A DNA stretch of 39,494 bases from a virus. Taxonomy: Duplodnaviria > Heunggongvirae > Uroviricota > Caudoviricetes. The notes beneath the pieces were generated by a model, which worked only from the letters and a program-made list of their open reading frames with translations, was not told the origin of the DNA and ran no database searches. Location: IMG/VR virus record IMGVR_UViG_2711768073_000020, positions 1 through 39,494 of that record. The stretch is one strand, 5' to 3'. The translations under genes and the position numbers were made by a program. Shown piece after piece: positions 6,493-11,192 of this stretch. Position 1 is the first letter of the stretch; each line of letters starts with the position of its first letter.

Positions 6493-7167
6493 TTAGGCTT
6501 TGATTTTGTATCTTCTTGGTTTTCCTGAGAAAATCACTGTACCAATTATAGAGCAATTACCGTTGATCTTAATGTAAGGCTCAGGCCAGTTTGGGTTTAA
6601 CGCTTTGAGATAACGCTGTGTCCCATCTTCTATCAACCTTTTGAAGGTGGTTTCGCCTGTATCGTGCATCAATGCAATAACGTCGTCACCGTGGCAGGCA
6701 GGTACTTCAGGATCGACAAAAATCATGTCTCCCGGGCGGTACTCATCAATCATTGAATCACCTATCACCCGCAAGATATAAGTCATTTCCCCACAGGGTA
6801 CAGGGCAGGGATACGTTTCTGCTGTGCTCAAATCAACCTCAGAATATCCAACTTCTTTCCATGCTCCGGCCTGTACCCATGATATGACAGGGACTAATGT
6901 GATTTGTTTATTAGTGATTGAAACATCAGGTTTTTTTGTGATGTTCGTTGTCTGGTGTTCTTGATCGAGCCATCCGACAGGCAGGTCGAAACATTTTTCG
7001 ATGTGTCGTGCCATGCTGTCACCGATATTTTTAGTAGCACCATCTCCCATAAACCTGCTGGTCTGGGTTGGCTCGCGATCAATCATAGTGGCAAAGGAAG
7101 AATTCCCGCCAACACCATCTCTCAGTTTTCTGGCGTTAGACCGCCGGATGTCATGGATTGTTTTCAT
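6493..7167 (-). CDS. cI: CI-type prophage repressor (HTH plus S24 LexA-like peptidase domain), 224 aa
   Basis: C-terminal self-cleavage domain with Ser motif (VIGDSMIDEYRPGDMIFVDP) and a downstream Lys (TTFKRL); divergent from a cro-like gene across an operator-rich 90-bp spacer. Confidence 0.85.
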   Translation of the reverse strand: MKTIHDIRRSNARKLRDGVGGNSSFATMIDREPTQTSRFMGDGATKNIGDSMARHIEKCFDLPVGWLDQEHQTTNITKKPDVSITNKQITLVPVISWVQAGAWKEVGYSEVDLSTAETYPCPVPCGEMTYILRVIGDSMIDEYRPGDMIFVDPEVPACHGDDVIALMHDTGETTFKRLIEDGTQRYLKALNPNWPEPYIKINGNCSIIGTVIFSGKPRRYKIKA

Positions 7168-7182
7168 AACGAAATTAAAACC

Positions 7183-7252
7183 CTTGTACCGTTAAGGTAC
7201 AAGTATCTTGAAGGTTCATTTCAATCATGTAATATGTACACCGGAGGTACAT
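7183..7252. promoter_or_regulatory. OR region: two palindromic operators plus candidate PR (-35 TTGAAG 7208-7213, -10 TAATAT 7230-7235)
   Basis: Perfect palindrome CTTGTACC-GTTAA-GGTACAAG (7183-7203) and ATGTACA-CCGGAG-GTACAT (7234-7252) between divergent cI and cro; GGAGG RBS at 7243-7247 before the cro ATG. Confidence 0.55.
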
Positions 7253-7257
7253 ATTGT

Positions 7258-7458
7258 ATGAAAGCGTATTGGGACTCTTTAACCAAAGAACAGCAGGGCG
7301 AGTTGGCCGGAAAAGTTGGCTCAACACCTGGCTACTTACGGCTGGTTTTCAATGGCTATAAAAAAGCCAGTTTTGTGCTGGCTAAAAAACTTGAGCAATG
7401 CACGTCAGGTGCAATTACGAAATCTGACTTAAGACCGGATATCTATCCGAAAGATTAG
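7258..7458 (+). CDS. cro: Cro-like HTH regulator (YdaS/Cro family), 66 aa
   Basis: MKAYWDSLTKEQQGELAGKVGSTPGYLRLVFNGYKK...; GGAGG RBS; divergent from cI. The 167-aa ORF-track version (from 6955) overlaps the cI promoter region and is rejected. Confidence 0.6.
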   Translation: MKAYWDSLTKEQQGELAGKVGSTPGYLRLVFNGYKKASFVLAKKLEQCTSGAITKSDLRPDIYPKD

Positions 7459-7489
7459 CAGAACACTTTCAATTTTTAACCACAGAACG

Positions 7490-8053
7490 ATGAGGCTAAC
7501 CGTGGGTAAGCATCACTGGAAAATAGAAAAACAGCCTGAGTGGTACGTGAAAGCTGTCAGAAAAACTATCGCGGCGTTGCCGGGTGGTTACGCTGAAGCG
7601 GCTGACTGGCTCGATGTAACAGAAAACGCTTTATTCAACCGCCTTCGTGCAGATGGCGATCAGATTTTCCCGCTGGGATGGGCAATGGTTTTACAGCGTG
7701 CTGGTGGCACTCACTTCATTGCTGATGCTGTGGCGCAGTCTGCAAATGGCGTCTTTGTGTCTCTTCCTGACGTCGAGGATGTGGACAACGCCGATATCAA
7801 CCAACGCCTGCTGGAAGTCATTGAACAGATCGGCAGTTATTCAAAACAGATTCGTTCAGCAATTGAAGACGGTGTAGTGGAACCGCATGAGAAGACAGCA
7901 ATTAACGATGAGCTGTACCTCTCAATTTCGAAGCTGCAGGAGCATGCAGCACTGGTCTACAAAATCTTTTGCGTTTCAGAAAGTAGTGACGCCCGCGAGT
8001 GTGCAGCTCCGGGCGCCGTGGCGTGTCGTGACTGTGGAGAAACTAACGCATGA
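7490..8053 (+). CDS. CII-like phage regulatory protein (YdaT/CII-family position), 187 aa
   Basis: Immediately follows cro; alternative GTG start at 7502 has a better RBS (GAGG); C-terminus has a Cys cluster ([14 protein letters not shown]). Confidence 0.45.
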
Positions 8054-8388
8054 ACAGTTTAACAACACACTACCGTCGCTCGCAACTGATTGCGCTTCCT
8101 GTACCGGGTGGAAAAGCGAAGGTGGAGTATTGCTATGCAGTAAATGTACCAGGTGACAGGGAAATTGTAACCCACAGCTTTGCAGAGTGGGCTGTGGGTG
8201 ATTTCAACCGGCAGAAGGAGACAGTCCTTTGCGACAAGTTAACCGCTGGTTCAAAGATCACTACGGAGTGCCCGTCAGAGTCATTCGTTGGGAGCCGGAA
8301 ACACAACGTGTTATCTACCTCCGCGAAGGCTATGAGCATGAGTGCTTCAGCCCGCTCGAACAGTTTCGTCGTAAATTCAGGGAAATAG
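8050..8388 (+). CDS. Hypothetical protein; C-terminal half possibly out of frame (see small ORF 8229..8408)
   Basis: ATGA start coupling with the upstream gene; the N-terminal ~55 aa look protein-like, the C-terminal part is low-complexity Ser-rich ([10 protein letters not shown]) while an alternative frame over the same DNA looks coding. Confidence 0.3.
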
Positions 8389-8408
8389 AGGTCGGTCATG
8401 AGCACTAA
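8229..8408 (+). CDS. Candidate small protein (59 aa, TTG start) not in the ORF track
   Basis: Strong AAGGAG (8215-8220) 8 nt upstream of TTG 8229; translation [59 protein letters not shown] has balanced, protein-like composition; stop overlaps the start of the O-like gene. Confidence 0.35.
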
Positions 8409-9339
8409 ATTAACCGGCTATGTATGGGATGGTTGCGCTGCATCAGGCATGAAATTATCCAGCGTGGCAATTATGGCCCGCCTGGCTGATTTCAGTAATG
8501 ACGAAGGTGTGTGCTGGCCATCAATTGAAACCATTGCCCGCCAGATTGGCGCGGGAATGAGTACCGTCAGAACGGCTATCGCACGGCTGGAAGCAGAAGG
8601 CTGGTTAACGCGTAAGGCGCGTCGCCAGGGTAACCGCAATGCGTCGAATGTTTATCAGCTTAACGTTGCGAAGCTTCAGGCAGCGGCATTTTCTCAACTG
8701 TCAGATTCTGACCCGTCAAAATCTGACGCATCAAAATCTGACCCGTCAAAATTTGATGCGTCGAAATCTGGCAAAAAAGCGGGTTTTCACCCGTCAGAAT
8801 CTGGCGGGGATCCGTCAGTAAAATCAAAACATGATCCGTCAGATAAAAAAACTTCTCGTCCGGACGCTTCGCAACCGGACACGCAGACGGCTGAACAGGA
8901 GTTTTTAACTCGCCATCCTGATGCGGTTGTATTCAGCCCTAAAAAGCGCCAGTGGGGAACGCAGGATGATTTGACCTGCGCACAGTGGCTCTGGAAAAAA
9001 ATCATCGCCCTGTACGAGCAGGCCGCCGAATGTGACGGCGAGGTGGTTCGTCCCAAAGAACCGAACTGGACAGCCTGGGCAAACGAAATTCGCCTGATGT
9101 GTGTGCAGGATGGTCGTACTCATAAACAAATCTGCGAGATGTACAGCCGCGTCAGTCGCGATCCGTTCTGGTGCCGTAACGTGCTCAGCCCGTCGAAGCT
9201 GCGGGAAAAATGGGATGAGCTTTCCCTGCGCTTATCGCCGTCCGTCAGCACGTACACCGAAAAACGCGAAGACCCGTACTTCAAAGCCAGTTACGACAAC
9301 GTGGACTACAGCCAAATCCCGGCAGGATTCAGGGGGTGA
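8398..9339 (+). CDS. Replication initiation protein (lambda O-like: N-terminal HTH DNA-binding domain, iteron-containing linker, C-terminal domain), 313 aa
   Basis: N-terminus SSVAIMARLADFSNDEGVCWPSIETIARQIGAGMSTVRTAIARLEAEGWL (winged-helix initiator type); central repetitive SDSDPSKSDASKSDPSKFDASKS encoded by DNA iterons. Confidence 0.7.
   Translation: MSTKLTGYVWDGCAASGMKLSSVAIMARLADFSNDEGVCWPSIETIARQIGAGMSTVRTAIARLEAEGWLTRKARRQGNRNASNVYQLNVAKLQAAAFSQLSDSDPSKSDASKSDPSKFDASKSGKKAGFHPSESGGDPSVKSKHDPSDKKTSRPDASQPDTQTAEQEFLTRHPDAVVFSPKKRQWGTQDDLTCAQWLWKKIIALYEQAAECDGEVVRPKEPNWTAWANEIRLMCVQDGRTHKQICEMYSRVSRDPFWCRNVLSPSKLREKWDELSLRLSPSVSTYTEKREDPYFKASYDNVDYSQIPAGFRG
8701..8805. repeat. Origin-type iterons: five 15-bp-spaced copies of TCA(A/G)AATCTG(A/G)C plus one more, followed by an A-rich tract
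   Basis: Copies at 8701, 8716, 8731, 8746, 8761 and 8794; AGATAAAAAAAC at 8841-8852; embedded in the initiator gene as in the lambda ori. Confidence 0.6.
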
Positions 9340-9830
9340 GCATGAGTCTTTTGAATGACGTTCAGAAATTCATTGAAGCCCATCCGGGCTGTACTTCCGG
9401 AGATATTGCGGATGCTTTTGCCGGTTACTCACGGCAGCGCGTTCTGCAGTCAGCAAGCAAGTTACGTCAGAGTGGGCGTGTGGCTCACCGTTGTGAAGGA
9501 GATACACGCAGACATTTCCCGCGCCTGACTGAGAGAGCGCAGGAACCGGAACCACAACCAGTTCGTGAAACCAGACCTGTGCGCAATTTCTATGTCGGCA
9601 CTAACGATCCCCGTGTGATTTTGTGCCTGACCCGCCAGGCGGAAGAACTGGAGTCCAGGGGCTTATACCGTCGTGCTGCAACCGTGTGGATGGCGGCATT
9701 CCGTGAAAGCCACTCCCAGCCAGAACGAAACAATTTTCTGGCGCGTCGTGAGCGGTGCTTACGGAAAAGCAGCAAGCGCGCTGCATCGGGTGAAGAGTGG
9801 TATCTGTCAGGGAATTACGTGGGGGCTTAA
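9336..9830 (+). CDS. Hypothetical replication-region protein, 164 aa
   Basis: ATGA overlap with the O-like gene stop; basic C-terminus; not recognisable as lambda P, DnaC or a helicase. Confidence 0.45.
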   Translation: MSMSLLNDVQKFIEAHPGCTSGDIADAFAGYSRQRVLQSASKLRQSGRVAHRCEGDTRRHFPRLTERAQEPEPQPVRETRPVRNFYVGTNDPRVILCLTRQAEELESRGLYRRAATVWMAAFRESHSQPERNNFLARRERCLRKSSKRAASGEEWYLSGNYVGA

Positions 9831-10483
9831 TGAGTAATAAATATTGCCAGGCGCTGGTGGAACTGCGGAACAAACCAGCCCATGAACTGAAGGAAGTGGG
9901 CGATCAGTGGCGCACGCCGGACAACATTTTCTGGGGAATTAACACCCTGTTTGGCCCGTTTGTTCTGGATCTGTTCACTGACGGTGATAACGCCAAATGT
10001 GCCGCGTATTACACGGCGGAAGACAACGCGCTGGCGCATGACTGGTCAGAACGTCTTGCGGAGCTTAAAGGTGCTGCCTTTGGTAATCCCCCATACAGCC
10101 GCGCCAGTCAGCATGAGGGGCAATACATCACCGGCATGCGTTACATCATGAAACATGCCAGTGCCATGCGTGATAAGGGCGGGCGCTATGTTTTCCTGAT
10201 CAAAGCTGCCACCAGCGAAGTGTGGTGGCCGGAAGATGCAGATCATATTGCTTTTATTCGCGGGCGTATTGGTTTTGAACTGCCTGTCTGGTTTATCCCG
10301 AAAGACGAGAAGCAGGTACCGACAGGAGCTTTTTTCGCTGGTGCTATTGCTGTTTTTGACAAGACCTGGAAGGGACCGGCAATCAGCTACATCGGGCGCG
10401 ATGAACTTGAGGCATGTGGTGAGGCGTTTCTGGCGCAGGTTCGCCAGCAGGCAGAAAAACTGGTCAGGGAGATGGCGGCATGA
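9830..10483 (+). CDS. Phage DNA N6-adenine methyltransferase (Dam-like), ~217 aa
   Basis: Catalytic NPPY motif (AFGNPPYS); start ATG 9830 overlaps the upstream stop (TAATG). Confidence 0.8.
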   Translation: MSNKYCQALVELRNKPAHELKEVGDQWRTPDNIFWGINTLFGPFVLDLFTDGDNAKCAAYYTAEDNALAHDWSERLAELKGAAFGNPPYSRASQHEGQYITGMRYIMKHASAMRDKGGRYVFLIKAATSEVWWPEDADHIAFIRGRIGFELPVWFIPKDEKQVPTGAFFAGAIAVFDKTWKGPAISYIGRDELEACGEAFLAQVRQQAEKLVREMAA

Positions 10484-10806
10484 CGACGTTAACTCAATGC
10501 CAGCAGCAGGTGCTGGATATGCTGATTTCTTATCAGAAAGAACGTGGCTTCCCGCCAACCAATCAGGAGGTGGCAACCATGCTGGGATACCGTTCAGTGA
10601 ATGCAGCGGTGGAGCATCTTCGCGCACTGGAGAAAAAAGGCGTCATCACGATAAAGCGTGGCGTGGCCCGGGGGATCACGCTTCATACCGCGGTGAAGGA
10701 CGACGACAGCGAGGCGGTCGGGATTATCCGCTCACTGCTTGCCGGTGAGGAAAACGCAAGGCTGCGTGCAACCCACTGGTTACATGAGAGAGGCCTGAAA
10801 GCATGA
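10480..10806 (+). CDS. LexA N-terminal DNA-binding-domain-like protein (no peptidase domain), 108 aa
   Basis: QQQVLDMLISYQKERGFPPTNQEVATMLGYRSVNAAVEHLRALEKKGVI parallels the LexA winged-HTH N-domain; no Ser/Lys S24 domain follows. Confidence 0.6.
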   Translation: MTTLTQCQQQVLDMLISYQKERGFPPTNQEVATMLGYRSVNAAVEHLRALEKKGVITIKRGVARGITLHTAVKDDDSEAVGIIRSLLAGEENARLRATHWLHERGLKA

Positions 10807-11192
10807 AGCTGATCCTGCCTTTTCCGCCCAGCGTGAACACGTACTGGCGACACCCCAACAAAGGGGCGTTTGCTGGTAAGAGCCTGATAAGCTCGGCGGG
10901 GCGAAAATTCCAGAGCGCGGCGTGCGCAGCAATAGTTGAGCAGTTACGTCGTCTGCCGAAACCAACGTCGGCACCTGCTTCAGTGGAGATCGTGTTGTTT
11001 CCTCCGGATAACCGGATCCGCGATCTGGACAACTATAACAAGGCGCTGTTTGACGCCCTGACCCATGCGGGTGTGTGGGAAGACGACAGTCAGGTGAAAA
11101 GAATGCTGGTGGAGTGGGGACCGGTTATCCCGAAAGGGAAAGTCGAGATCACTATCAGTAAGTACGAGAAAACGGCGGGTGCAGCCGCCTGA
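10803..11192 (+). CDS. rusA: Holliday junction resolvase RusA
   Basis: ~129 aa with RusA-like acidic motif (DNRIRDLDNYNKALFDALTHAGVWEDDSQV); ATGA coupling with the upstream gene. Confidence 0.8.
   Translation: MKLILPFPPSVNTYWRHPNKGAFAGKSLISSAGRKFQSAACAAIVEQLRRLPKPTSAPASVEIVLFPPDNRIRDLDNYNKALFDALTHAGVWEDDSQVKRMLVEWGPVIPKGKVEITISKYEKTAGAAA

Follow-up and report, generated by a model that had tools for sequence, protein, structure and literature searches.

Phage lambda has its replication origin, iterons plus an AT-rich tract, within the central part of gene O, and the complex of O with the iterons is the O-some (PMC7466680). The annotated iterons fall in codons 117–145 of lambda O and 122–147 of phi80 gp15. 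Here we analyse the corresponding gene in a 39,494-nucleotide stretch of viral DNA (IMG/VR record IMGVR_UViG_2711768073_000020, hereafter the window), which is an SfIV/SfII-type lambdoid prophage. Its O-like replication initiator gene carries, in codons 102–153, an array of short, partly palindromic repeats followed by an A-rich tract. Does this array mark a lambda-type origin inside the initiator gene, as the first-pass annotation had proposed? Homology of the C-terminal domain, the same position in the linker, constraint acting on the DNA and linkage of the repeats to the N-terminal domain all support the proposal, and we consider it very likely that positions 8700–8856 are the prophage's replication origin, situated, as in lambda, within the linker codons of its own initiator gene.

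As in lambda and phi80, and also in the Stx phages 933W and P27, the initiator gene belongs to the early rightward operon, in which cro and a CII-like gene precede it. Like the lambda and phi80 initiators, its product has an N-terminal DNA-binding domain, a flexible linker and a homologous C-terminal domain (N-domain and C-domain below); the linker DNA contains repeated, partly palindromic sites and then an A-rich tract; and N-domain and sites can be exchanged together as a unit. The N-domains of lambda O and phi80 gp15, however, belong to Phage_rep_O (PF04492), whereas that of the window protein is of the HTH_36 family, and the site sequences are unrelated. Units of about 18–19 bp at a spacing of 20–24 bp in lambda and phi80 compare with units of 13 bp at 15 bp in the window, which has in addition a distal extended palindrome and a weaker A-rich tract built of two GATC-headed repeats. 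No P gene follows the initiator gene, and the protein ends in a tail of the IPxGFRG type, unlike the TDWIYGVDL of lambda.

Iteron plasmids (pSC101 RepA, R6K pi, RK2 TrfA, P1 RepA) likewise place tandem initiator sites beside an A/T-rich unwinding region of short repeats, and likewise combine a winged-helix initiator with reliance on host DnaB/DnaC; the unwinding region of P1 oriR also has GATC-containing repeats. Their origins are intergenic, whereas the predicted origin of the window is intragenic, and their Rep proteins combine two winged-helix domains and lack a C-domain of the lambda O type, whereas the model of the window protein shows a single winged helix. DnaA boxes are typical of these plasmids; in the window, by contrast, there is no mismatch-free box in 8000–9900 and none that is convincing in or near the initiator gene, nor was any convincing IHF site found in or near it. 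N-domains 39–46% identical over about 70 residues occur in SfV orf39, Phi24B O, Klebsiella RAH1 O and Pectobacterium ZF40 gp14. These genes differ from that of the window in the sequence of their repeats, which are spaced at 21–24 bp, and downstream of most of them, though not of SfV, comes a P-like, primase-helicase or helicase gene.

In DNA sequence the initiator gene is 98–99.9% identical to genes of SfIV, SfII and several E. coli phages annotated as 'replication protein O / primosomal protein', and the PHROG 391 profile ('replication initiation O-like') covers residues 1–313 of the product (E=1.6e-135). Pfam HTH_36 (PF13730) matches residues 23–70 with E=4e-11 and 42.9 bits against a cut-off of 25. 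In an AlphaFold model built on 38 homologues the N-domain is a single winged helix, with helix-turn-helix helices at residues 43–50 and 54–66, wing strands at 70–74 and 84–88, and a predicted local distance difference test (pLDDT) score of about 80–89; its structural neighbours are MarR-type winged-helix dimers bound to (palindromic) DNA. The linker, residues 103–161, is modelled with a pLDDT below 50. It is thus a disordered linker whose codons hold the repeats and the A-rich tract, and of all parts of a protein such a linker would best tolerate a second layer of constraint. By BLASTP the C-domain is related to lambda O (E=1e-25) and phi80 gp15 (E=2e-25) and, judged by this homology, the gene is a true relative of lambda O. 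The C-domain matches no Pfam family. Searches of the PDB by sequence and by fold yielded generic MarR-type winged helices only; no solved initiator was among the matches, and the C-domain had none. NCBIfam gave no match above its cut-offs.

Direct reading and repeat searches, which return the copies as one family, locate at 8700–8805 six copies of a partly palindromic 12–13 bp unit, GTCARAATCTGRC, with start-to-start distances of 15, 15, 15, 15 and 33 bp (Table 1). Tandem Repeats Finder delimits 8707–8770 with a period of 15, 4.3 copies and 81% matches, and as a second fit offers a period of 30 with 88% matches. The first-pass annotation had described a 12-nucleotide motif, TCA(A/G)AATCTG(A/G)C, present five times at 15 bp plus a sixth. 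The number of copies and their spacing hold, but only three copies (at 8716, 8731 and 8794) fit the degenerate 12-mer exactly, the others having one or two mismatches. When one mismatch at most is allowed, the gene has five occurrences of the motif and the remaining 38,552 bases of the window have none on either strand; with at most two mismatches the motif is seen 31 times against 11.5 +/- 3.5 expected, ten of these occurrences lying within the 106 bp of 8700–8805. Matches appear on both strands because the unit is a palindrome (GTCAGA-n-TCTGAC). All six copies lie within the open reading frame (ORF) 8398–9339 and encode the peptide SDSDPSKSDASKSDPSKFDASKSG, in keeping with the earlier statement that they specify a repetitive linker inside an O-like gene.

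Are the repeats kept for the peptide that they encode, or for their DNA? We compared five phages with an SfIV-type N-domain, 80 chromosomal loci of Enterobacterales (N-domain identity 52–100%) and 80 viral contigs; about 120 distinct relatives (121) entered the comparison. The motif is found two to six times in the linker of almost every homologue, in many genera of Enterobacterales, and four times in about 340 kb of flanking DNA. When linker peptides were picked on amino acids alone, as S[KE]S[DGE], the first serine proved to be encoded by TCA in 201 of 217 cases and the second by TCT in 184 of 217; in the rest of these genes TCA makes up 17% and TCT 9% of serine codons. Lysine and glutamate in these peptides are AAA and GAA without exception, and the spacer codon between units is free, with 20 different codons. 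At columns with conserved residues the mean share of the commonest codon is 0.92 in the linker segment F-x-P-x-E-S-G-G-D-P-S-V-x-S-x-x-D-P (13 columns) versus 0.54 in the N-domain (59 columns; Mann-Whitney p=3e-7), and eight of the 13 linker columns use a single codon in all sequences bearing that residue. In the same set of sequences, synonymous sites are saturated in the N-domain and frozen in the repeats.

A position matrix drawn from 484 phased units in 115 genes gives 1.1–2.0 bits per position for the core T-C-A-R-A-W-T-C-T-G-A-C, and 0.6–0.9 bits for the three-nucleotide spacer. Among the relatives the phased run comprises one to seven copies, with a mode of five, and the distal copy lies 33 (+15n) bp past the last phased one. 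Two relatives, Stx2_KH16-043 (L007) and a Citrobacter prophage (L083), each have one copy out of frame (CGTCAGAATCTGAC or CTTCAGAATCTGAC), where it reads T-R/L-Q-N-L-T; this is the very frame that in the window had been called spurious. By the evidence of these comparisons, the repeats are conserved as DNA and not as protein.

The sixth iteron is embedded in an extended palindrome, which across genera is the most conserved DNA of the gene. Its CCC/GGG arms are kept in 57 of 70 sequences, and its two n positions are complementary in 28, against 28.1 expected, so that there is no covariation between them. This pattern indicates a symmetric protein site and not a base-paired hairpin, and a reading of the palindrome as a hairpin or cruciform was rejected on the same ground. 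Directly 3' of it stand the A-rich repeats, GATCCGTCAGTAAAATCAAAACAT and GATCCGTCAGATAAAAAAACTTCT, each headed by GATC, which together make up a candidate DNA-unwinding element. The claim that an A-rich tract follows the repeats describes a real but modest feature: at 8800–8879 the G+C fraction is about 0.42–0.43, and the AT skew is positive. The 40-bp segment 8817–8857 is the least stable duplex inside the gene and ranks at the 98th percentile of the whole window. The GATC site at 8809 is invariant in 70 of 70 sequences and that at 8833 is lost in eight; in the codons of the A-rich repeats, aspartate is GAT and valine GTA in all 66–67 sequences that bear those residues at the column. The window contains a gene for a Dam-family methylase, and SfIV has no Dam gene.

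Other readings of the same DNA were also followed. The alternative-frame ORF with TRQNL repeats was rejected as a gene: its start and length vary among the 121 relatives, 23 of which have no ATG, and the first-pass annotation had rightly called it a spurious product of the same periodicity. An antisense ORF (8660–8827) spans the repeats as well. On the minus strand, a terminator-like hairpin and T-run (CGGGTGAAAACCCG CTTTTTTGCC) can be drawn at 8793–8780, between the fifth and the sixth repeat; relatives keep the sequence TTTT(C/G)ACCC but not the hairpin, and this candidate was set aside. A promoter scan found no promoter.

Table 1. Positions in the window of the predicted origin, the initiator gene and its domains, and the genes downstream.
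Feature	Coordinates	Strand	Sequence	Basis or remark
Replication initiator gene, 'O-like', 313 aa	8398-9339	+		ORF; 99% identical to SfIV gp41, SfII 'O protein family'
N-terminal winged-helix DNA-binding domain, aa 1-102	8398-8703	+		Pfam HTH_36, AlphaFold model
Five phased iterons, 13-bp partial palindromes, exact 15-bp spacing	8700-8772			Repeat searches and position matrix
Iteron copy 1	8700-8712		GTCAGATTCTGAC	
Iteron copy 2	8715-8727		GTCAAAATCTGAC	
Iteron copy 3	8730-8742		ATCAAAATCTGAC	
Iteron copy 4	8745-8757		GTCAAAATTTGAT	
Iteron copy 5	8760-8772		GTCGAAATCTGGC	
Iteron copy 6, distal	8793-8805		GTCAGAATCTGGC	
Extended palindrome holding the distal sixth iteron, CCC-n-YCAGAATCTGG-n-GGG	8790-8808		CCCGTCAGAATCTGGCGGG	
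Two 24-bp A-rich direct repeats, candidate DNA-unwinding element	8809-8832, 8833-8856		each beginning GATCCGTCAG	Repeat search
Junction of 'N-domain + origin' and C-terminal modules	8843-8876			Just 3' of the A-rich repeats
C-terminal domain, aa 162-280, helical	8881-9237	+		BLASTP to lambda O, phi80 gp15; pLDDT ~90
C-terminal tail	9310-9336	+	SQIPAGFRG	E. coli DnaT ends in SQIPPGFRG (8/9 identical)
Alternative-frame ORF with TRQNL repeats, 60 aa	8639-8821	+		By-product of the periodic motif, not a gene
PerC-like activator gene	9336-9830			Downstream of initiator
Dam-family methylase gene	9797-10483			Downstream of initiator
LexA-N-terminal-like protein gene	10480-10806			Downstream of initiator
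RusA gene	10803-11192			Downstream of initiator

In the classical lambdoid view, it is the iterons and the N-terminal half of O that together determine origin specificity. In the present family the N-domain and repeats occur with C-terminal parts of at least four unrelated kinds: a lambda-O-type C-domain in the window, Klebsiella Kp4871 and Providencia; a DnaD/Phg_2220-like one in phiNP, Flotzy, YeP2 and many others; an SfV-type one in KH16-043 and L083; and a fourth type in two loci, L090 and L092. Conversely, mEp460_4F5 has the C-terminal half of the window gene (97% DNA identity) together with an unrelated N-domain, its own palindromes spaced at 23 bp and its own A-rich repeats. The junction between the two modules was placed by the extent of these matches, mEp460_4F5 sharing only nucleotides 446–942 of the gene and phiNP only nucleotides 2–479. 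Other O-like genes (SfV, Phi24B, RAH1, ZF40, mEp460_4F5 and phi80) carry palindromic repeats of their own at the same position in the linker. Initiators whose recognition helix reads STVYGAL, STVITLI or STIRGAI, and not STVRTAI, have sites of the CCAGAATCTGG type instead of the TCAGAATCTGA type, a hint from sequence comparison, seen in two or three independent lineages only, that recognition helix and site may covary.

The two loci with the fourth C-terminal type are the most diverged relatives (52–53% N-domain identity); their perfect palindromes (CTCCAGAATCTGGAG) number only two, which in L090 flank three direct repeats of 30 bp, encoding EPPVFRATSGL three times. In both loci a DnaC-like gene follows the initiator.

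How might such an origin work? The following scheme, with its binding and unwinding steps, its origin activity and its route of helicase recruitment, is inferred from the analysis. Dimers of the N-terminal winged helix would bind the 13-bp palindromes, five of them phased at 15 bp and one, the distal, extended. The resulting nucleoprotein complex would destabilise the adjoining A-rich, GATC-headed 24-bp repeats at 8809–8856, probably helped by transcription through the gene from the early rightward promoter. The C-domain and the tail would then bring in the host helicase, a role proposed for them because no phage P, DnaC or DnaB gene adjoins the initiator gene.

Selection on the DNA of the repeats and their linkage to the N-domain support a lambda-type origin; several observations weigh against it. 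With a spacing of 15 bp, neighbouring sites come to lie on nearly opposite faces of the helix, and since other O-like genes space their sites at 21–24 bp, an O-some-like geometry is in doubt; sites two apart (30 bp) are roughly in helical phase, and 30 bp is also a period fitted by Tandem Repeats Finder. The segment 8809–8856 is only about 58% A+T, far below the tract of lambda, and the N-domain falls outside the Pfam family of lambda O. No helicase-loader gene lies downstream, so the O–P mechanism of lambda is not transferable as it stands. Frequent recombination at the module junction could in principle lower synonymous divergence as well. Finally, literature searches, which did not cover older lambdoid papers, yielded no description of this type of origin; the SfIV genome paper mentions a 'replication module' and no origin, and the paper on the Stx 'Eru' types does not discuss origins.

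That the repeats are under selection as DNA shows a cis-acting role, not which one. They might be sites for the initiator or for another DNA-binding protein, serving in autoregulation, as a roadblock in the early operon or in copy-number 'handcuffing', with the true unwinding site elsewhere. Winged-helix proteins of this fold are mostly transcription regulators, and the weakness of the A-rich tract would suit such a role. Yet the motif is found neither near a promoter nor elsewhere in the window, the sites stand where lambda and phi80 have their annotated iterons, the C-domain is that of a replication initiator, and a conserved, easily melted A-rich repeat stands directly 3' of the sites; we regard a purely regulatory role as unlikely. 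Could the conservation instead reflect recombination, a short linker segment having spread among phages at a mosaic junction and not being a binding site at all? Lambdoid genomes are highly mosaic, and the junction between N- and C-terminal modules does fall just 3' of the repeats, at about 8843–8876. Such a history would, however, require that a 150-bp piece swept again and again through dozens of genera, and it is at odds with the retention of a 12-nucleotide core while the three-nucleotide spacers differ between copies and genomes, with copy numbers of one to seven, with the persistence of one copy in another reading frame, with symmetric CCC...GGG arms that are kept while the positions between them are free, and with the saturated synonymous sites of the N-domain just upstream in the same sequences. 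It strikes us as very improbable.

Least credible of all is the view that the repeats have no DNA-level role and are mere low-complexity peptide linker (SDxSK, grown by replication slippage) or mRNA structure. The encoded region is indeed a disordered, repetitive peptide, and its RNA folds far better than shuffled sequences do (z=-5.7), but the strong fold arises because palindromes are repeated, and the underlying copy number is not conserved. The peptide varies (spacer P/A/T/G; K/E; D/G/V) while the core of the DNA stays. Frozen synonymous codons, an out-of-frame copy, free spacers and an extended palindrome that has no compensatory covariation together argue strongly against any account purely at the level of peptide or RNA structure. 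An Rfam scan of 7000–10500 gave a chance-level match only (30.7 bits against a threshold of 97), to a microRNA family; being below threshold and caused by the palindromes, this match was discarded.

If the origin lies where we place it, what partner delivers the helicase? A tblastn search of the window with lambda P, phi80 gp14, RAH1 P, DnaC and helicases gave no match. The window shares with phiNP, Flotzy, YeP2, SfV and mEp460_4F5 the absence of a lambda P, DnaC, DnaB or primase gene after the initiator. The C-terminal tail of the window protein closely resembles that of E. coli DnaT (Table 1; the dnaT gene used for the comparison is L174, 2479–3018). A tail of the IPxGF type is present in 93 of the 121 distinct SfIV-type initiators; 90 of these 93 have no helicase-loader gene within 2.5 kb, and three are directly followed by a DnaC-like gene. 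Two of the 121 end in a lambda/phi80-like TDW or PEGW tail, and in both a P-like gene follows. The type of tail thus tracks the partner gene downstream, and the tail may be a handle for DnaC–DnaB. It is conceivable, and to our minds rather doubtful, that this prophage family combines a lambda-like origin that dispenses with a phage helicase loader, a DnaT-like tail that directly recruits host DnaC–DnaB, and GATC repeats that make firing sensitive to Dam and SeqA. The way in which DnaB/DnaC is recruited by DnaT-containing preprimosomes has been stated to be unknown (PMC13377028), and the preprimosome structure paper states no role for the extreme C-terminus of DnaT. Were the proposal true, the tail motif would also point to a way in which the restart primosome could receive its helicase from DnaT.

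The locus seems to represent an undescribed class of origin/initiator specificity within the lambdoid scheme, with an unusual phasing of 15 bp. A probable origin is hereby located for a very common prophage family of E. coli, Shigella and other enterobacteria (SfII, SfIV and relatives, with thousands of members in the databases), and an exchangeable module of DNA-binding domain plus origin is defined. The case also shows cleanly how comparative codon analysis, on its own, can uncover a cis-acting DNA element concealed within a gene's codons. These results should be useful for annotation, for the design of phage-derived replicons and for understanding replication incompatibility between prophages. 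They leave the general picture of lambdoid replication unchanged, the feature being ordinary in kind.

Upstream of the initiator gene, the early region runs from a cI-like gene (6493–7167, minus strand) through a cro-like ORF ending at 7458 and a Phage_CP76 (CII) gene at 7490–8053 to the initiator start at 8398. Between the last two lies a gene of 112 codons (8050–8388; PHROG 1170, annotated as DUF4222 in relatives), which ends 10 bp before the initiator start; in matches from other genera in the plasmid collection, a DUF4222 gene is likewise annotated beside the initiator gene.

In the plasmid collection, the only matches to the module were prophages in large replicons and phage-sized circles, and no small plasmid uses it. 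Among the circles is NZ_CP081716.1 (L176), a circular 'plasmid' of 37,667 bp from E. coli CX04, which is a complete SfIV-like phage genome with this module. It has no typed plasmid replicon and is presumably an excised or replicating phage circle present in the sequenced culture.

Two E. coli chromosomes (L067 and L091, 2501–3868) carry a 455-residue ORF in which residues 1–78 of the N-domain are fused to a terminase-like protein, the product of a deletion extending through the repeats as far as the terminase gene. The fusion probably resembles ymfN of the defective prophage e14. Lambda (L002, 1355–1395) and phi80 (L175, 8778–8812) share a palindromic segment to the right of the AT-rich tract, TCGTCAGAGAATTCTGGCGAATCCTCTGAC, which the window lacks and whose half-sites TCAGA/TCTGG resemble those of the window iteron. 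Providencia relatives (linker of L080) carry the TCGTCGCAGAATTCTAACGAATCC form of this segment downstream of SfIV-type iterons.

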